From: an uncultured Gammaproteobacteria bacterium
Lineage (GTDB): Bacteria; Patescibacteriota; Patescibacteriia; Magasanikbacterales; GWA2-37-8
Direction of reading: 5' to 3'
DNA: 64,000 bases
Assembly (NCBI GenBank): GCA_964619625.1
Contig: CAZUFD010000002.1
Location: forward strand, 14,582-78,581
The position numbers were made by a program, and so were the translations under genes. The notes under the pieces are model-generated. The model saw only the letters and a program-made list of their open reading frames with translations. It did not search any database and had not been told where the DNA came from. Position 1 is the first letter of the stretch. Each line of letters begins with the position of its first letter. Shown here piece after piece: positions 3,935-56,091 of the stretch.

Positions 3935-4180
3935 TGCCGTTAGAGTTCGACGGGCACTCTTCAACACCGTCAACTCGAATCTATAAATTTATTAATTAAC
4001 AATAATCCACACCTTTATTTGACACTCAAAAATTTAGGTGCTAGTCTAACTTTACAATTTAACTAACATATATCTGTGGAAGTGAGGTTCAATTCCTCCA
4101 CTGTGCCGCAACGGTAAACTCATGCAATTAGCTTGGGAAGTCCGGTCTTCAGATATAGGCCCCATAATATGGGGTTAGTC

Positions 4181-4269: not shown

Positions 4270-4857
4270 ATGCCCAATTCAAACAAACTCCTTCACCGAC
4301 TATTAATTTTTCTAATTTTTATCTCGGTTTTTGCCGCAACTTACTTATTCCTTAACCCAGATAATAATAACGCCTCTCCACCTTTATACCCTGCTCCCAC
4401 AAACACTGCCGCCACCCTTCAAACTGAACCAGGTTTAAAACCGGCGATGCTAAAAAATAAAACTAGCGATGGTAACGAAAAAACTGTAATTAGCCCCACA
4501 GGAACAAATACCACCTCCAACACCGCTCCTTCTTCCCCACCGCCTCCGACCAACTCAACCGAAACTATACCCGTTACATTCAAAATTGAAGACAAGGAGT
4601 ACAGTCCAACCGTAAAGCCGGGCGCTACCGCTTATGAAGCAATGGTTGCATTACGAGAAAGCAAAGATATCTCGTTTTCTACCAAAGTATTTTCCGGCCT
4701 GGGGCATTTCGTAGAAGAAATCAATGGCCAGAAAAATAGTCCGTCTAGCGGTTTCTACTGGACATTTTATATAAATAACGAGGAAGCAAAGGTTGGTGTC
4801 TCAAATTATACCCTTAAACCAAACGATTTAATTACATGGAAGTACGAAAATAAATAA
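4270..4857 (+). CDS. Membrane-anchored DUF4430-domain protein (transcobalamin-beta-like fold family)
   Basis: N-terminal TM helix, a Pro/Thr-rich linker, then a C-terminal region (GHFVEEINGQK...GFYWTFYINNEEAKVGVSNYTLKPNDLITWKY) matching the DUF4430 pattern. Confidence 0.65.
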   Translation: MPNSNKLLHRLLIFLIFISVFAATYLFLNPDNNNASPPLYPAPTNTAATLQTEPGLKPAMLKNKTSDGNEKTVISPTGTNTTSNTAPSSPPPPTNSTETIPVTFKIEDKEYSPTVKPGATAYEAMVALRESKDISFSTKVFSGLGHFVEEINGQKNSPSSGFYWTFYINNEEAKVGVSNYTLKPNDLITWKYENK

Positions 4858-4862
4858 TTTTT

Positions 4863-7103
4863 ATGAAGATACAGAACAAATTAGGGGGATTAACGTATTT
4901 TATATTATTAACAGCGTTGCTATGGGCTTTACCGGCCCTGGCCAACACAACCAGCTCTACTCCTGATATAAATACTTCTACTCCGGAAATGGAACTGTCT
5001 ACCAGCACACCAGCCGTGTCTTTACCCACTTCTACTCTAACGCTTCGTTACGAAGATCAAATTATCTGGACAGGCAGCCTGGAACTGACAAGCACCCTAT
5101 ATCATGACGCAATAAATAATTTGGATTATCAACTTACTACTAATACAGTATTTTCTGCTCTCGTTTTAGCAGACCAGCAAAGCGATGTTTTTACTATTTC
5201 AGATGCCCAATATAATTCCGGTTTTGACAGTTTTTACCTTGCTTGCATAAACATTTCGCCAACTTCTACCCAAAATCCCTGCTACAACTGGAATTATGTG
5301 GTAAATAATAATTACCCAAGTATTGGCATGGATAAATATTCGTTAACTGGCGGTGAAAGTATATACGTCTACTTCTCTACTCCTTGGAAAATTTCCGCCT
5401 CCACTACCACATTTCCGCTAGACACAACCACAACTCTGCAAACCTGGCGCTATCAATTTGATAATCTATCGCAACCGTGGGTATCTGATGAAAACAATTT
5501 GGTGGATATTTCTGTTCCCAACCCTTCTTCAACCGGTTGGTGGGATCAAACGATTACGGTTACCACAACCCAAACCAGCGCCAGCGGCACCGTAGATTTT
5601 AAATTTTCCGCAACCGGTACATATTATGCCAAAATTATTTCTTTAGATTGGACCAAATGGAGCAATCCCATAACCCTTACTGTACTTGAAAATTCTTCTA
5701 GCACAGATTCAGGAACACCTCCGCAAAATGGGGGCGGTTCCGGGCCGGCTGCGGCGGTAAGCACAAGCGAAATAAACAACGCGGTGCAAAAAATATTAAA
5801 CTTTTTGAAATCAAAGCAATTAGATAGCGGCGCGATTGTTGATTTGTCTACTTCAGATTGGTCGGCTATGTCCTTTGGCGCACATGGTACTTATGCCCAG
5901 GATGTACGAACTTCTACATTCTCTCTGTATGATTACTTAAATGTAACTATAGTCACCTCTACAACTCAAACACTCAACAGCTGCACTGAATATGCCAGAC
6001 ATATACTAGGCTTACTTAGTGCCGGATTTACCAAAACAAACAGCCAAATAGTTGACCTAAAAAATAAAATTACAACGGAATGTTTAGCTGGCGGACAAGT
6101 GGGTCAAGCGGGAATAAATGATGATATCTTTATTTTAATGGCTCTGCTGGCTACCAACGAGGGCGCTTCAAATGAACTTGTACAGGCAGCCGTAGCAACG
6201 ATTAAGGCCGACCAGCAAGCAAACGGCGCATTTACCTGGAATGGATGGCCGGGACAAGATGTTACCGGTGCCGCTATTAACGCTCTTAAATATGCTTCTA
6301 CCTTTGGCGTGGCCGTAGACGAAACAATTTTCCAGCAAGCAAAAAATTATCTGCATACCACTCAATTAAACGATGGCGGCTGGGGCTTTGATACTACTTC
6401 CGATCCGCTTACTACAAGTTGGGCCATGTACGGCTTAAACGCGCTTGGCGAAGGTCAAACAGGATGGACAAATACTCAAAATAAAAACCCATGGTCACTC
6501 CTCGTAAATAATGTGAATGATTCGGGCTATTATGAGTCTCCTTGGAGCGCGGATGGTATAGATTGGTTTGCCACCAAACACGCTGTGCCAGCGTTGTTGG
6601 GCAAATCATGGCCAATTATTATCAGCATTCCGGTTGCTCCCGCGGCTCCGGCTTCTTCAGGTTCGGGTTCAAATCCTGTTGTAGCAAGCACCTCGACTCA
6701 AACTGAAACTACCAGTATAATAAGTACTACAACCATAGCAACCTCTACCCCTGCCACAACTACCTCTGAGCTGGTTAATACAGATTCAGAGCCTCAAGGT
6801 GAAATCTTGGGTATAAAAATTGAAAACACAGCTAAACCGGTAAAAACTGCTCGCACTATTTCCGCCAAACCAAAAAGCTTGGCACAAGCTGAAAATAAAA
6901 ATATAAACGCTGAGACGAGCACAACTATATCTACAAATAAAGACTTGGATACAGAAAAAAATTTAGAACTAAATCAAAAAAATACCGGCTCTGATTCATC
7001 TGCTTTAAGGTGGATGATACAAAAACTTCTAGTAATTTGTCTTCTTGCCGCCGGGGCTATTAGCCTATACCTTGGATTTAACCATTTAATGAAGAAAAAA
7101 TAA
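4863..7103 (+). CDS. Large surface protein: DUF4430-like domain plus prenyltransferase/terpene-cyclase-like alpha/alpha-toroid repeats, with a C-terminal TM anchor
   Basis: Signal peptide and Ser/Thr-rich linkers. A DUF4430-like block (CYNWNYVVNNNYPSIGMDKYSLTGGESIYVYF). Repeated DGGWG / SDWSAMS / DGIDWF motifs typical of squalene-cyclase/prenyltransferase repeats. A C-terminal hydrophobic helix followed by KKK. Confidence 0.7.
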   Translation: MKIQNKLGGLTYFILLTALLWALPALANTTSSTPDINTSTPEMELSTSTPAVSLPTSTLTLRYEDQIIWTGSLELTSTLYHDAINNLDYQLTTNTVFSALVLADQQSDVFTISDAQYNSGFDSFYLACINISPTSTQNPCYNWNYVVNNNYPSIGMDKYSLTGGESIYVYFSTPWKISASTTTFPLDTTTTLQTWRYQFDNLSQPWVSDENNLVDISVPNPSSTGWWDQTITVTTTQTSASGTVDFKFSATGTYYAKIISLDWTKWSNPITLTVLENSSSTDSGTPPQNGGGSGPAAAVSTSEINNAVQKILNFLKSKQLDSGAIVDLSTSDWSAMSFGAHGTYAQDVRTSTFSLYDYLNVTIVTSTTQTLNSCTEYARHILGLLSAGFTKTNSQIVDLKNKITTECLAGGQVGQAGINDDIFILMALLATNEGASNELVQAAVATIKADQQANGAFTWNGWPGQDVTGAAINALKYASTFGVAVDETIFQQAKNYLHTTQLNDGGWGFDTTSDPLTTSWAMYGLNALGEGQTGWTNTQNKNPWSLLVNNVNDSGYYESPWSADGIDWFATKHAVPALLGKSWPIIISIPVAPAAPASSGSGSNPVVASTSTQTETTSIISTTTIATSTPATTTSELVNTDSEPQGEILGIKIENTAKPVKTARTISAKPKSLAQAENKNINAETSTTISTNKDLDTEKNLELNQKNTGSDSSALRWMIQKLLVICLLAAGAISLYLGFNHLMKKK

Positions 7104-41010: not shown

Positions 41011-42297
41011 TTAGTGTTTTAACAACTCTAAAACTTTGGCTTTGTTCATTGGGCTGATAACGGCAAAACGAGCTTGGCTCATATTAAATATTTTATTAGC
41101 TATTCGTTTTACATCCGCGGCTGTAACCTTATTTATTTTTTTCACCACTTGTTCGTATGTTTGAATTGTGTCGGCAAACCAAAACTGCTTGGAAAACCAT
41201 TGGGCCTGGGCGCTGGAATTTTCCATTGATAATTCCATGCGTCCGGCAATATTGCTTTTCGCATCCGCCAGTTCTTTAGCCGAAACTGTTTCTTTTTGAA
41301 TTTTTTCTAACTCGGTTTTTATCACTTTCACGGCATCCCCCAGTCTGGATGGATCAAGACCGGCTTGAATACTGGCAATACCGACATCTTTAAAAGATCC
41401 GGAATCAGTACGAACCACATACGCTAAACCTCGCTTTTCGCGCACTTCCACAAACAGTCGCGAACTCATGCCGCCGCCTAAAATATTTAAGAGCACCGAG
41501 AGCGCGTATCTGTCTTTATCATTATAATGAAGACCGGGAAAACCCATAATCATCTGCGCTTGATCCAGTTTTCTTTCGGAAACCATGACTCTGTCAGCCA
41601 ACGGCAGCGCTTTATTGCTCCAGACAAATTTTTTAAATTTATTTTTTAATTCTTTTTCCCCGGCGCCGGTAGGAGCATTAAAACAGTTGAGGGCTTTTTT
41701 TAATTTTGACTCATTTATGTTACCGGCTACCACAAGCACCATATTGCCCGGGAAATAATAATTCTTATAGTATTTCCATAACTGCTCGCGACTTACACCG
41801 CGTACGGTTTCCGGCGTACCGCCGATATCCCATCCGAGCGGATGATCATCGCCAAACATTACGCGTTCGGACAAATTTTCCACGGCCATTACGGGATTAT
41901 CTTCATACATGCGAACCTCCTCCACGATCACGCCTTTTTCCTTTTCTACTTCTTCGGTTTCAAATTTAGAATTAAAAATTATATCTGCCAGCCAATCAAA
42001 GGCTTTTTCCATATTTACTTCACCGGTTTTTACGTAATAACCGGTGTAATCTTTGGAAGTAAACGCGTTATACTCCGCTCCAAACGCGTCCAGTTCACGG
42101 GTGATTTCCAAATGAGTCGGACGTTTTTTCGTGCCTTTAAACATCATGTGTTCCACGAAATGGGAAGAGCCTGACATTTGTTTTTGCTCATAACGGGAAC
42201 CAACCGGAAACATAGCCATGATAGTAAGGGCTTTGGTGCCGCTAACGGGAACCTTGATAAGCGTAATGCCATTTTTTAATTTGGAAATTTTGTACAT
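41011..42297 (-). CDS. M16-family (pitrilysin/insulinase-like) zinc peptidase
   Basis: Inverted zinc motif HFVEHMMFKGT (HxxEH) followed by a downstream Glu. Confidence 0.85.
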   Translation of the reverse strand: MYKISKLKNGITLIKVPVSGTKALTIMAMFPVGSRYEQKQMSGSSHFVEHMMFKGTKKRPTHLEITRELDAFGAEYNAFTSKDYTGYYVKTGEVNMEKAFDWLADIIFNSKFETEEVEKEKGVIVEEVRMYEDNPVMAVENLSERVMFGDDHPLGWDIGGTPETVRGVSREQLWKYYKNYYFPGNMVLVVAGNINESKLKKALNCFNAPTGAGEKELKNKFKKFVWSNKALPLADRVMVSERKLDQAQMIMGFPGLHYNDKDRYALSVLLNILGGGMSSRLFVEVREKRGLAYVVRTDSGSFKDVGIASIQAGLDPSRLGDAVKVIKTELEKIQKETVSAKELADAKSNIAGRMELSMENSSAQAQWFSKQFWFADTIQTYEQVVKKINKVTAADVKRIANKIFNMSQARFAVISPMNKAKVLELLKH

Positions 42298-42300
42298 ACG

Positions 42301-43683
42301 TTAATTATCAAACTTTTCTTTCAAATAATTTTTTAAGTCTTCCATAGCTATTCTTTCTTGGGCCATAGTATCTCTATCTCGCACCGTCACTTTTTTGTCT
42401 TCCAGTGAATCAAAATCAAGCGTTACGCAATATGGCGTACCGATTTCATCCTGGCGGCGATAGCGTTTGCCGATACTTTGGGTTTCGTCATATTCCACCG
42501 AGAAATCTTTGCGCAAGTTTGCTGCCAACTCTTTGGCTACGCTAGATAATTCTTCTTTTTTGGATAATGGTAACACTGCCACTTGAATTGGAGCCAAATG
42601 TTTTGGAAACTTCATTACGATACGCGCTTCAGTTTCGCCTTTTTCGGCGGTTGGCGCTTCTTCTTCATGATAGGCTTCAAGCAAACATACCAAGAGCATA
42701 CGATCTATACCAAAGGTAGGCTCTATAACGTGAGGGACAAATTTTTCGTTTGTTTCCGGATCAGTATAGTGTAAATCCTGGCCGCTGACGGTTTCATGCC
42801 GGGATAAATCAAAATCCGTGCGATAGGCAATGCCGTGGAGTTCTTTGACGCCAAACGGATATTTATATTCAATATCAACCGTGCGTTTGCTGTAGTGCGC
42901 TCGTTCGCCATCCGGGATTTCATGCCAAACTAAATTATCCATATTTATTTGCATAATATCCTTCCACCAGCGCTTTATTTCTCCCAGCCACATTTCAAAA
43001 ACTGTTTCCCAATCTTTTGGGCTGATAAAATACTCAAATTCACCGATTTCAAATTCACGAGTGCGGAAAATAAAATTGCCCGGCGTGATCTCGTTGCGAA
43101 AATTCTTACCAATCTGGGCAATACCAAATGGCAAACGACGGCGAGTAACATTTAAAATATTTTTGAAATTTACGAACATGCCTCCCGCGGTTTCCGGACG
43201 CAAATAGGCTGTGGTAGATGAGTCCTCGTTTACACCCAAATATGTTTTAAACATCAAATTAAACGCCTTTGGTTCTGTGAGCGCGCCCTCACAATCCGGA
43301 CATTTTAGTTCGGCAATTGTTTTAGCATTTTCTTTGTCATACCCCGGCTTGGCGCTCGCTGCTTCAAGTAAATGATCGGTGCGGAAACGGTGGTGGCATT
43401 TCTTGCATTCCACCAGTTCGTCGCTAAAATTTTGTAAGTGTCCTGACGCTTCCCAAACCTTGGGATTCATAATAATAGCCGTATCAAGCGGTACCATATC
43501 TGCTCGCTGCTGCACAAAAAATTTCCACCAAGCTTTTTTAATATTTTGTTTAAGCAAGTGTCCCAGCGGGCCATAATCCCAGCTGTTTGCCAAACCGCCA
43601 TAAATCTCGCTGCCCGGGAACACAAAACCGCGCCGTTTGGCCAGAGATACTATTTTATCCATTAAATCGTTTTGTTCTGACAT
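42301..43683 (-). CDS. glyS: Glycine--tRNA ligase (class II, alpha2 dimeric type)
   Basis: N-terminus MSEQNDLMDKIVSLAKRRGFVFPGSEIYGGLANSWDYGPLG is typical of alpha2 GlyRS, with class II motifs downstream. The start was chosen at the internal ATG; the longer ORF extends into the leader. Confidence 0.9.
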   Translation of the reverse strand: MSEQNDLMDKIVSLAKRRGFVFPGSEIYGGLANSWDYGPLGHLLKQNIKKAWWKFFVQQRADMVPLDTAIIMNPKVWEASGHLQNFSDELVECKKCHHRFRTDHLLEAASAKPGYDKENAKTIAELKCPDCEGALTEPKAFNLMFKTYLGVNEDSSTTAYLRPETAGGMFVNFKNILNVTRRRLPFGIAQIGKNFRNEITPGNFIFRTREFEIGEFEYFISPKDWETVFEMWLGEIKRWWKDIMQINMDNLVWHEIPDGERAHYSKRTVDIEYKYPFGVKELHGIAYRTDFDLSRHETVSGQDLHYTDPETNEKFVPHVIEPTFGIDRMLLVCLLEAYHEEEAPTAEKGETEARIVMKFPKHLAPIQVAVLPLSKKEELSSVAKELAANLRKDFSVEYDETQSIGKRYRRQDEIGTPYCVTLDFDSLEDKKVTVRDRDTMAQERIAMEDLKNYLKEKFDN

Positions 43684-43857
43684 ATACCTATTGACAGTTG
43701 CTAAAATTATGTTTATACTATTGGCTCCGGCATTGTAGTAAGTCAACGGGCGTTTACCTGACAGCCGCGGGATTCCCCCCTCCCAAGGCAAGGTTGCCCT
43801 TACGACACTCTACTTTGCCGGACTTTTTTTTAAATTATTATACCAAAGTTTTACTAA

Positions 43858-44005
43858 ACAAAAAAGGCCTCTGTAGGCCTTGGGGTCCCGATTCTATCGG
43901 GATGGTTCCACCCAAGTTTTTTTCGCTATTCTCAGCGAAAAACACTCTTTTGAATTACAGCTTACTCCAAAGGCGCCAACCTTCTTCATCGCTTGCCGAA
44001 CTCTG
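43858..44005 (-). promoter_or_regulatory. Candidate T-box riboswitch (Gly specifier, ultrashort Stem I) in the glyS leader
   Basis: Minus-strand elements in order: GA/K-turn motif GCGATGA...AGTAAGC; a short stem AAGG / CCTT with loop UUGGCGC carrying GGC; a Stem III-like hairpin TTTCGCT-GAGAA-TAGCGAAA; an antiterminator with helix CTTGGG, the 7-nt bulge UGGAACC, the A2 helix TCCCGAT-AGA-ATCGGGA and closing CCCAAG; then a competing terminator AAGGCCT-ACAG-AGGCCTT followed by a U6 tract. Confidence 0.45.
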
Positions 44006-44010
44006 TATAA

Positions 44011-44039
44011 ATTATACCTAAATTATGCAGAATAGTCAA
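44011..44039 (-). promoter_or_regulatory. Sigma-70-like promoter (TTGACT-N17-TATAAT) driving the T-box leader
   Basis: The minus strand reads TTGACT attctgcataatttagg TATAAT. The -35 hexamer overlaps the stop codon of the upstream gene. Confidence 0.45.
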
Positions 44040-44656
44040 TTTATATCTTTAGTGACTTCGGCAGCCACATCAATTAGATCGGCAAATTCTTTTTCCGACA
44101 ATCCAAGCTCTTCGGCCGTAAACTTAAAACCTCTTTGCATATTAAGAAATTTATTATAAAAAGCATTTCTCACTCCAGCCTCTTCCCAAGGAACTTCTTT
44201 TAAGGCTAACTTCAAAAAACCGCAAGTCACTTTACGGTTAAGCATATCTAATTCGTTTGAGGAAAGTCCTAAGTCTTTCAGCTCAATTCCCTGTTCTTTG
44301 AGTACACCGAGAGATGTTTTGACAAAAGTTGTTAGATTATCTCCGGCTCCATGCCCCGGAGCGATGATTTCCCTAAACCGCGCGGCGTAATATGCTTTAA
44401 GCAATTCTTTTGCCTTATACTCTAAATTTTCCAACATATCCGTATACATACCTGCTGCCGGATCTTTTTTCTGGGTTTTGCAGAACTCAAGGGACTTTAC
44501 CACTAAAGTTAACACCTCTTTAAAACCATCTAAAACACTGACGTTTTCTAAGTAACCGGGAAGTTTACCAAGCATGTCTTCTACCTCTTTGATCCTGTTT
44601 TTAATGTCTTGCTCCCGCTCCGCATCCTGTTTCAAAAAGTCGCCTTTTTCTGACAT
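44036..44656 (-). CDS. Hypothetical protein
   Basis: 206-aa ORF between frr and the glyS leader. No family recognised. Confidence 0.55.
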   Translation of the reverse strand: MSEKGDFLKQDAEREQDIKNRIKEVEDMLGKLPGYLENVSVLDGFKEVLTLVVKSLEFCKTQKKDPAAGMYTDMLENLEYKAKELLKAYYAARFREIIAPGHGAGDNLTTFVKTSLGVLKEQGIELKDLGLSSNELDMLNRKVTCGFLKLALKEVPWEEAGVRNAFYNKFLNMQRGFKFTAEELGLSEKEFADLIDVAAEVTKDIN

Positions 44657-55375: not shown

Positions 55376-55915
55376 TTATGATTTTGCTTTGGCGATATTA
55401 TTAAGCACTCCAACAAGCCCGCGTAAGTTTCCAGCCATGACGTTTACAAATCCGGAAACCGGAGCGTTAAGAGTTCCAACCAATTTTGCCAAGAGTTCCC
55501 GCTTGCTTGGCAAGCTGGCCAAACTCTTTACCATGGAAACATCTATAAATTTGCCTTCCAGCACACCACCAAATAGTTTAACTATTTCGTGATCTTTGGA
55601 GAATGTGTGCACTATTTTTGCGGCGGAAACTTCGTCTCCCAAAGCCATAAAAGTAGCCACACCGCCGGAGAAAACTTTAGGATCAATATCTTTGAGTCCC
55701 AATTCTTCACACGCGCGCTTTACCAGGGTTTTCTTGGCAGCTACAACTTTGATGTTGTTTTTTCGGCATTCTCGGCGCAATTCTTCTGCTTCCGAAACCT
55801 TCAATCCTTGAAAATTGGCAAAAACCACGGCCTTAGCCGCTTTAAGACCATCTTCCAAAGATTTAACGGTATCTTGTTTCTGCAGTTTTGTTTTTGGCAT
55901 ATGTATGTTTTTCAA
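55376..55915 (-). CDS. rplJ: 50S ribosomal protein L10
   Basis: 179 aa. The L10-family pattern is present, and it sits immediately upstream of rplL. Confidence 0.88.
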   Translation of the reverse strand: MKNIHMPKTKLQKQDTVKSLEDGLKAAKAVVFANFQGLKVSEAEELRRECRKNNIKVVAAKKTLVKRACEELGLKDIDPKVFSGGVATFMALGDEVSAAKIVHTFSKDHEIVKLFGGVLEGKFIDVSMVKSLASLPSKRELLAKLVGTLNAPVSGFVNVMAGNLRGLVGVLNNIAKAKS

Positions 55916-56091
55916 ACAAAAAATCTGTGTTCTCCACAGACCTCTAGCACAAATCGACCGAATCTAGCTAAACAGCTATTATTTGTACCTCGGCAGGCCT
56001 GCCCGTAAATCGGGCAAATTAGATCCTTTCGGACACCTACTGTCTATGGTTAGACCAAGTATATATATAATGATAAAAAAAGTCAAGGGCT

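Follow-up and report, generated by a model that had tools for sequence, protein, structure and literature searches.

Sequence evidence for a glycine-specific T-box leader with an ultrashort Stem I upstream of glyS in Magasanikbacteria

Results

Organisation of the glyS locus

The 64-kb stretch of contig CAZUFD010000002.1 analysed here (the window) carries glyS on its minus strand, and the leader element of this gene is real, with all of its listed motifs confirmed between 44039 and 43858 (Table 1). A first-pass annotation of the window had described the element as a probable T-box leader specific for glycine whose Stem I is ultrashort, and the order of the motifs, their covariation and their conservation in 14 leaders support this description. 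The downstream gene had been named glyS in agreement with the specifier, which is upheld by the relatives of its product, a glycyl-tRNA synthetase (GlyRS), and by the two domains found with Pfam, tRNA-synt_2b and HGTP_anticodon. The closest GlyRS matches, with 80-92% amino-acid identity, are from metagenome-assembled genomes (MAGs) of Candidatus Magasanikbacteria or Patescibacteria, and because these are the nearest relatives the host, judged by its GlyRS, is a member of the candidate phyla radiation (CPR), as had been suspected.

Table 1. Coordinates of the features of the glyS leader and its surroundings in the window
Feature	Position	Strand	Description
Predicted promoter P1	44011-44039	-	TTGACT 44039-44034, 17 nt, TATAAT 44016-44011; 11 of 12 consensus positions
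Ultrashort Stem I	43958-43998	-	41 nt; base helix, K-turn and 5-bp hairpin
Stem I base helix	43998-43991 / 43965-43958	-	CGGCAAGC / GUAAGCUG
K-turn	43990-43986 / 43968-43965	-	GAUGA opposite GGA(G)
Specifier hairpin	43984-43980 / 43973-43969	-	GAAGG / CCUUU; loop UUGGCG 43979-43974
Specifier GGC	43975-43977	-	Glycine codon; 3' side of the terminal loop; G next
Single-stranded linker	43943-43957	-	About 15 nt; ends in purine flank (A)GAGUG, which fits RRRxG
Stem III and 3' AA flank	43942-43919 (stem), 43918-43917 (AA)	-	
Antiterminator	43879-43916	-	A1, UGGAACC bulge and A2
A1	43916-43911 / 43884-43879	-	CUUGGG / CCCAAG
T-box bulge	43910-43904	-	UGGAACC; 7 nt
A2	43902-43896 / 43892-43886	-	UCCCGAU / AUCGGGA; closing pair A.C
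Intrinsic terminator	43860-43881	-	AAGGCCU-ACAG-AGGCCUU 43881-43864; T6 run 43865-43860
Candidate promoter P2	43837-43845	-	Extended -10 TGGTATAAT, downstream of the terminator
E2	43726-43831	both	Imperfect hairpin of about 98 nt, 43823-43726; A8/T8 run 43824-43831
Antisense promoter-like site	43691-43719	+	TTGACA-N17-TATACT; 11 of 12 consensus positions; faces E2
glyS	42301-43683	-	ATG at 43683; 460-aa GlyRS, class II single-chain (alpha2) type; PF00587 and PF03129
M16 peptidase gene	41011-42297		Starts 3 nt past glyS; tpiA is next

Conservation of the leader motifs

Eighty GlyRS loci from GTDB species representatives were scanned (loci are given by L numbers). GGGTGGAACC was found upstream of glyS in nine of them, and exact-protein look-ups gave four more distinct leaders. 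The alignment set held 14 distinct glyS leaders from Magasanikbacteria MAGs, which share one order of elements: K-turn, 5-bp helix with GGC loop, linker, Stem III, A1/bulge/A2, terminator and U-tract. The identity of these leaders to that of the window is 54-99% where lengths match and about 39% for two leaders with inserts.

The K-turn (kink-turn) formed by GAUGA and GGAG aligns to that of the Rfam T-box family RF00230, and UGA and GGAG are kept in 14/14 leaders; the predicted K-turn is thus present, but its 3' half is GGAG and not AGUAAGC as a whole. Stem I is capped by a terminal loop of 5-8 nt in every leader and has no AG bulge, distal loop or platform, and the alignment to RF00230 has 8 nt where the model has 76 positions of distal Stem I. 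GGC is the sole triplet common to all 14 terminal loops, each of which lies upstream of a GlyRS gene, and the base after it is a purine in 12 leaders and U in two (L008 and L031). The loop had been expected to hold GGC followed by a purine, as it does, but it is the 6-nt UUGGCG and not UUGGCGC. The specifier hairpin helix is 100% paired across the leaders with four of its five pairs changed on both sides, and in the Stem I base helix six of eight pairs are changed in this way.

Where RF00230 has its two Stem II segments, of 27 and 13 positions, the leader has 2 nt each time, and there is no Stem II or IIA/B pseudoknot since the linker is too short for them. The Stem III-like hairpin of the first-pass annotation holds up well, as all nine of its pairs are changed on both sides and 91.8% of its cells are paired. 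It is flanked by the Stem III flank motif as defined in PMC7583486 (5'-RRRxG ... AA-3'), the 3' AA being invariant and the 5' RRRxG constant in the 14 leaders. The proposed arrangement of A1, bulge and A2 was likewise recovered. The bulge UGGAACC, which is typical of glycyl T-boxes (PMC11404447), is invariant (14/14), A1 is 100% paired with one of six pairs changed on both sides (U-A to C-G in L011 and L029), and five of the six A2 pairs covary.

Two structural peculiarities were observed in this region. In L011 (about 2705-2760) and L029 (about 2795-2860) Stem I and Stem III are separated by an additional 40-60-nt hairpin, which might be a vestige of Stem II or a lineage-specific insertion, and A2 of L029 is lengthened by a long AU-rich extension. 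In the window, the purine flank 5' of Stem III (AAGU/GAGU) and the first bases of A1 (ACUU) are complementary (43943-43949 with 43914-43917, minus strand), and RNAalifold lengthens Stem III through this pairing in the terminator-state fold. In such a model the pairing is possibly an anti-antiterminator, or a mere by-product of two conserved motifs.

Covariation, Rfam score and covariance model

Covariation is found in every helix. Standard pairs make up 92.5% of the cells, a share that drops to 30-53% once the 3' partners are shifted by 1-3 columns. Of the 34 modelled pairs, 25 are changed on both sides, and 0/500 shuffles reach any of five measures. An independent MAFFT alignment gave the same picture of covariation.

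In a permissive Rfam search of 43600-44100 (501 nt), RF00230 was the top match with 28.4 bits and E=1.7e-4, the alignment spanning model positions 1-219 with K-turn, Stem III, T-box sequence and A1/A2 in register. The minus-strand check that had been proposed with this family therefore gave a full-length and locally significant match, but one below the gathering threshold of 93 bits; the score is low because distal Stem I and Stem II are missing. At the Rfam gathering thresholds the window yields only tRNAs, an adenosylcobalamin (AdoCbl) riboswitch and an L10 leader. Among the relatives, RF00230 scored 28.9-31.8 bits in three, six others had no match at E<=0.1, and no member of the class exceeded 32 bits.

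A covariance model built from 10 of the leaders gave 110-127 bits for the four leaders outside the training set. Applied to the window and the 80 loci it retrieved these leaders only, with no match in the 70 other GlyRS loci apart from one at chance level (16 bits, E=0.73), and it had no match in the relatives that lack the T-box. A canonical T-box at the Rfam threshold was found upstream of glyS in 0/36 more distant CPR GlyRS loci.

The nucleotide conservation of the leader exceeds that of glyS and the flanking genes. Between the window and L001 the identity is 86% for the leader, 82% for glyS and 66-76% for the neighbours, against L206 the leader has 82% versus 76%, and against L003 98.6% versus 89.8% overall. 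The helices are kept at 54-60% identity (about 39% with inserts), and the leader is better conserved than the genes; both points speak for purifying selection on the leader RNA. The conservation expected in related glyS leaders was accordingly found, with UGGAACC/A1/A2, the GGC loop, Stem III and the terminator kept with compensation (n=14). The pair of results that had been named beforehand as speaking against a T-box, no significant RF00230 match and no conservation of the arrangement, is not what was obtained, as the match is locally significant and the arrangement is conserved.

Terminator and competing conformers

A terminator with a U6-7 run overlaps A1 by AAG in 14/14 leaders, and the terminator sharing the 3' side of A1 that had been proposed for the window was detected together with its T6 run. 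The terminator stem covaries (AAGGCC/GGCCUU versus AAGACC/GGUCUU), and the U-A to C-G change in A1 of L011 and L029 is accommodated in the terminator as G.U. In constrained folds of the window the terminator conformer has -19.2 and the antiterminator conformer -16.6 kcal/mol, and the terminator conformer is favoured by 0.2-2.8 kcal/mol in 13 of the 14 leaders. The leader folds better than its shuffles (z = -3.2).

Candidate promoters and apparent deletion of the T-box in relatives

P1 corresponds to the promoter TTGACT-N17-TATAAT of the first-pass annotation, and its near-consensus hexamers (Table 1) have a counterpart in the relatives, where TTGACA/T-N17-TATAAT/TATAGT lies upstream of the T-box.

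The gap of about 175 nt with an extended -10-like sequence that had been noted as an oddity (the distance from the U-tract to the glyS ATG is 176 nt) resolves into a conserved P2 and an inserted hairpin element, E2. An extended -10 (TGnTATAAT/TATACT) follows the terminator in 12/14 T-box leaders, namely those of the window and of L001, L003, L008, L011, L029, L031, L036, L204 and L206-L208, and none is recognisable in L028 and L030; in L031 no base separates the TG from TATACT. Five relatives without the T-box (L006, L201, L211, L212 and L213) have the extended -10 as well, and it often lies 8-13 nt ahead of the glyS ATG. From this distribution, TGGTATAAT most likely marks a second promoter of glyS that is independent of the T-box.

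In L006, L201 and L211-L213 the -10 of P1 is fused to the terminator hairpin (TATAAT-T-AAGGCC...GGCCTT-T6; L006 2779-2835, L201 about 1405-1470, L211 about 25-95, L212 and L213 about 900-990) and P2 is kept. This fusion looks like a clean deletion of the whole riboswitch, and a P1 transcript in these relatives would begin inside a hairpin arm.

The element E2 and a possible antisense RNA

E2 lies between P2 and the glyS ATG. On the glyS strand it is a hairpin of the 5' untranslated region (5'-UTR) with the A8 run ahead of it, and on the plus strand it is a hairpin followed by U8. It occurs at the same site in L003 (2858-2961), which has the T-box, in L006 (2869-2964), which has none, and in truncated form in L002 (2922-2996). 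Its fold is far more stable than that of shuffles, with z = -3.1 in the window and -5.7 in L006, and the hairpin is kept across 34% sequence divergence, with clean compensation at two pairs only (three sequences). Neither strand had an Rfam match at E<=10.

The antisense promoter-like site begins, with its -35, about 8 nt from the glyS start codon, and the E2 hairpin follows about 7 nt past the site and is in turn followed by T8. Counterparts are found in L006 (2996-2968, minus strand) and L003 (2993-2965, minus strand), each of which matches the consensus at 11 of 12 positions. All three genomes thus keep the hexamers and the spacing of 17 nt, and the spacer sequence differs in L006. The plus-strand site, hairpin and T8 could be the outline of an antisense RNA of about 105 nt. 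This reading is weakened since G.U pairs favour the glyS-sense fold, with minimum free energies (MFE; sense/antisense, kcal/mol) of -49.7/-33.9 in L006, -46.0/-42.9 in L003 and -43.9/-43.6 in the window. By its sequence E2 could be a 5'-UTR hairpin, a cis-antisense pair or both, and it is possible that a cis-antisense unit acts on the same leader in some lineages.

Several other identities of E2 were considered and rejected. With one copy in the 64-kb window and four among 94 sequences searched it is not a multicopy repeat, and the lack of an Rfam match and the lone-hairpin shape speak against a glycine riboswitch, 6S RNA or ribozyme. The plus strand appears to share GUUUACC...AAGGCA with the E. 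coli 4.5S sequence, but a signal recognition particle (4.5S) RNA was dismissed, as the motifs are lost in L006, the apical loop is variable and neither strand matches Rfam. A search of metagenome contigs with the inner-hairpin pattern gave, among the matches listed, chance ones in high-GC contigs and no E2, and it brought up nothing on the T-box.

Genomic context and other observations in the window

An exact-sequence look-up of the GlyRS of the window returned no record. MAG records (L002, L006, L007, L010, L013 and others) encode GlyRS proteins 80-90% identical to those of Magasanikbacteria; many such records are titled 'uncultured Gammaproteobacteria' or 'Candidatus Udaeobacter', and the taxonomy of the records appears unreliable. 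Between frr and the T-box promoter lies an open reading frame (ORF) of 206 aa (44036-44656, minus strand) with no match in Pfam. At its position the relatives have unrelated ORFs of 100-103 aa or none, so the frr-glyS spacer is variable.

By a crude test, a Shine-Dalgarno (SD) motif was recognisable in 5/45 long ORFs of the window, and none was found before glyS, which is uninformative because the genome seldom uses SD. For the same reason a mechanism based on sequestration of the SD is unlikely for the glyS leader, and leaderless translation from P2, which had been argued from the missing SD, was dropped. Start codons in the window stand in A/U-rich sequence, several with an extended -10 a few bases upstream (e.g. 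2862).

No second T-box was detected in the window with the Rfam thresholds and the class covariance model, and no further aminoacyl-tRNA synthetase gene was found among the six window ORFs scanned against Pfam. An AdoCbl riboswitch match barely over its threshold (4060-4177, plus strand; 52.8 versus 50 bits) precedes two ORFs with DUF4430 domains (4270-4857 and 4863-7103), which fits an operon for cobalamin-related uptake or binding in a CPR genome. A match to the ribosomal protein L10 leader, also barely over threshold (55909-56067, minus strand; 46.4 versus 44 bits), lies directly 5' of a 174-aa ORF (55376-55900).

Discussion

By homology and by most of its defining features, as far as these can be read from sequence, the element is a T-box. 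We do not file it as an ordinary member of the family, because it has neither the platform nor Stem II, because the G.U pair of A2 is replaced and because its Rfam score is too low.

With fair confidence we regard the leader as a minimal T-box transcription attenuator that responds to tRNA-Gly and controls read-through from P1 into glyS, and probably into the M16 peptidase gene and tpiA, which have the same orientation; from the conserved motifs we infer that tRNA is bound, that its charging state is discriminated, that transcription terminates and that both promoters are active. The nascent leader would fold the K-turn and the 5-bp hairpin, whose terminal loop would offer GGC to the GCC anticodon of tRNA-Gly, and past the linker of about 15 nt Stem III with its purine flanks and A1/A2 would form the discriminator. 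The UGGA of the bulge would pair with the free 3'-UCCA of uncharged tRNA-Gly and thereby keep A1 closed. Since the 3' strand of A1 (CCCAAG) holds the first AAG of the terminator, a closed A1 would block the base of the terminator beside the U-tract, and RNA polymerase would read through. The 3' end of charged tRNA-Gly would be rejected, so that the slightly more stable terminator would form and transcription would stop at the U6 run.

The three contested pairs would thus be those at the terminator base by the U-tract, where completion of the stem should matter most for termination. As the overlap and the energy gap are both small, even a weak tRNA complex with two contacts could tip the switch. 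It is likely that the all-G/C codon-anticodon helix, the small energy gap and the 3-nt overlap together let the RNA spare the platform and Stem II, the argument from the all-G/C helix having been made for glycine T-boxes in PMC7583486. P2 probably gives a basal expression of glyS, which the T-box would boost when glycyl-tRNA is scarce. In view of the conserved P2 and of the inserted E2 with its own antisense promoter-like site, glyS is probably not under control of the T-box alone, which would modulate rather than gate its expression.

The layouts described in PMC7583486 and PMC11404447 are a long Stem I with Stem II, the commonest among transcriptional T-boxes; a long Stem I without Stem II in glycine T-boxes, attributed to the strong GGC:GCC helix; and, in the translational ileS T-boxes of actinobacteria, a Stem I of intermediate or ultrashort length that cannot do without Stem II and the IIA/B pseudoknot. 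Judged from its predicted structure, the present leader is a combination of these: its Stem I is ultrashort, as is otherwise known only from the actinobacterial ileS T-boxes, its design without Stem II is that of glycine T-boxes, and it has an intrinsic terminator. In the literature, our coverage of which is incomplete, we found no description of an ultrashort Stem I combined with the absence of Stem II, and no reports of T-boxes in CPR.

In Bacillales and Clostridia the glycine T-boxes (glyQ(S) of B. subtilis, G. kaustophilus and O. iheyensis; glyS of S. aureus and C. tetani) belong to class I, act on transcription and have no Stem II, and the Magasanikbacteria leaders resemble them in the GGC specifier, the UGGAACC bulge, the K-turn at the base of Stem I, the linker that replaces Stem II and IIA/B, the purine flanks of Stem III and the competition of A1/A2 with an intrinsic terminator, as well as in the position upstream of a glycyl-tRNA synthetase gene. 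However, Stem I is about 85-100 nt in Bacillales and Clostridia, with an internal specifier loop, S-turn, AG bulge and distal loop, which jointly build the elbow platform, whereas in Magasanikbacteria it has 41 nt and ends in the specifier loop. The replaced G.U pair of A2, the overlap of 3 nt and an RF00230 score of 28-32 versus 93 bits are further differences.

With the ultrashort-Stem I ileS T-boxes of actinobacteria (Mycobacterium; class II translational; Sherwood et al. 2015, after PMC7583486 and PMC12990946) the leader shares the truncated Stem I, the lack of an elbow platform and, as predicted for it, tRNA contacts through the anticodon and the 3'-NCCA only. The resemblance to this class drawn in the first-pass annotation therefore holds for Stem I, but not beyond it: the ileS T-boxes need the S-turn of Stem II along with the IIA/B pseudoknot, which steady the codon-anticodon helix and make up for the absent platform, and for neither of which the Magasanikbacteria linker leaves room, their specifier is AUC and not GGC, and they sequester the SD and so act on translation, whereas the glyS leader has a terminator and a U-tract. 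The atypical glyQS T-boxes of S. pyogenes and S. pneumoniae are natural glycine T-boxes with unusual features, e.g. A2 closed by G-C and short linkers, and the G-C closing pair is reported to work in S. pneumoniae (PMC11404447). Their departures from the canonical plan indicate that the T-box family tolerates variation. These T-boxes keep a long Stem I with AG bulge and apical loop, and lose the K-turn or gain Stem II, which is the opposite direction to the reduction in Magasanikbacteria.

A number of observations weigh against a tRNA-responsive attenuator. According to PMC7583486, transcriptional T-boxes cannot do without the Stem I platform (the interdigitated T-loop motif, IDTM, which stacks on the elbow of the tRNA), which they need for sufficiently rapid tRNA loading and whose disruption abolishes read-through, and tRNA is hardly bound by a truncated Stem I if Stem II is absent; the leader is without both, contrary to this requirement. 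The canonical G.U pair that closes A2 and serves as steric sensor of the aminoacyl group is replaced in the whole class (A.C in seven leaders, U-A in five and G-C in two), and the RF00230 score is far under the gathering threshold. The unconstrained MFE structure is a hybrid, with an A1 of 4 or 5 bp and a terminator shorter by 1 or 2 bp. The overlap between antiterminator and terminator is just 3 nt, probably less than in canonical T-boxes. A scan of the window and of the 80 GlyRS loci for a tRNA-Gly gene gave none; bacterial tRNA-Gly carries U73, and we infer the same for the cognate tRNA-Gly. A conserved P2 sits downstream of the terminator. Finally, the loss of the T-box from the close relatives L006, L201 and L211-L213 implies, on the sequences at hand, that it is dispensable in some lineages.

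Much of this would be explained if the leader were the relic of a T-box that no longer responds to tRNA and serves P1 and the upstream gene as a fixed attenuator or terminator, glyS being transcribed from P2. Such a relic would account for the loss of the two domains published as needed for tRNA capture, for the A2 closing pair that is not G.U, for the conservation of P2 and for the outright deletion of the T-box in sister lineages. Under decay, however, GGC, UGGAACC, the K-turn and the flanks of Stem III would not stay invariant, nor would every helix be repaired by compensation at 54-60% identity; the leader is also more conserved than the adjacent coding sequence, and the one reduced architecture shared by all 14 copies speaks for a stable design and not for random erosion. 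We therefore consider a relic unlikely.

More improbable still, in our view, is a functional T-box that needs a helper, be it a K-turn-binding protein of the L7Ae type or another protein, pausing of RNA polymerase, or the E2/antisense unit. The helper would lend the stability that in other T-boxes comes from the platform and Stem II, and the RNA by itself would be insufficient. Proteins that bind K-turns are known to assist T-boxes (PMC7583486), and such help would fit the strict conservation of the K-turn and the mere two short Watson-Crick contacts to the tRNA. However, E2 is absent from most T-box loci and so is no general cofactor, and the small energy gap between the conformers may make any helper unnecessary.

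That the resemblance is due to chance, the hairpin being simply the terminator of the upstream 206-aa ORF and glyS starting at P2, has hardly any probability left and is effectively refuted, since, although this ORF ends at 44036 and overlaps the -35 of P1, and although P2 lies after the hairpin and the RF00230 score is below threshold, the full set of T-box motifs is present in canonical order, five helices covary, leaders outside the training of the covariance model reach 110-127 bits, the hairpin is kept in L212 and L213 where the upstream gene is divergent, and the orthologous leaders, with 54-86% identity, are not assembly duplicates of one sequence. Conservation of the leader despite divergence thus rules out chance resemblance, and it makes a decaying relic unlikely.

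If the leader is the tRNA-responsive attenuator proposed here, we are inclined to think, somewhat less firmly, that it is also the smallest natural T-box, spanning Stem I through U-tract in about 140 nt, and a working transcriptional switch that would operate on a codon-anticodon helix of 3 bp and a UGGA/UCCA helix of 4 bp, with no platform, Stem II or G.U sensor. This would contradict the generalisation that the platform is essential in transcriptional T-boxes. A conserved natural class without platform and Stem II offers a direct test of what is minimally needed to sense tRNA charging, and a compact scaffold for structural and synthetic-biology work. Pipelines of the Rfam or TBDB type miss the class because it scores about 30 bits against a threshold of 93 bits, and similar reduced T-boxes on other genes may hide in uncultivated lineages. 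T-box regulation would then extend to the CPR/Patescibacteria, whose ultrasmall genomes have few known regulators and would nevertheless retain RNA-based sensing of an amino acid.

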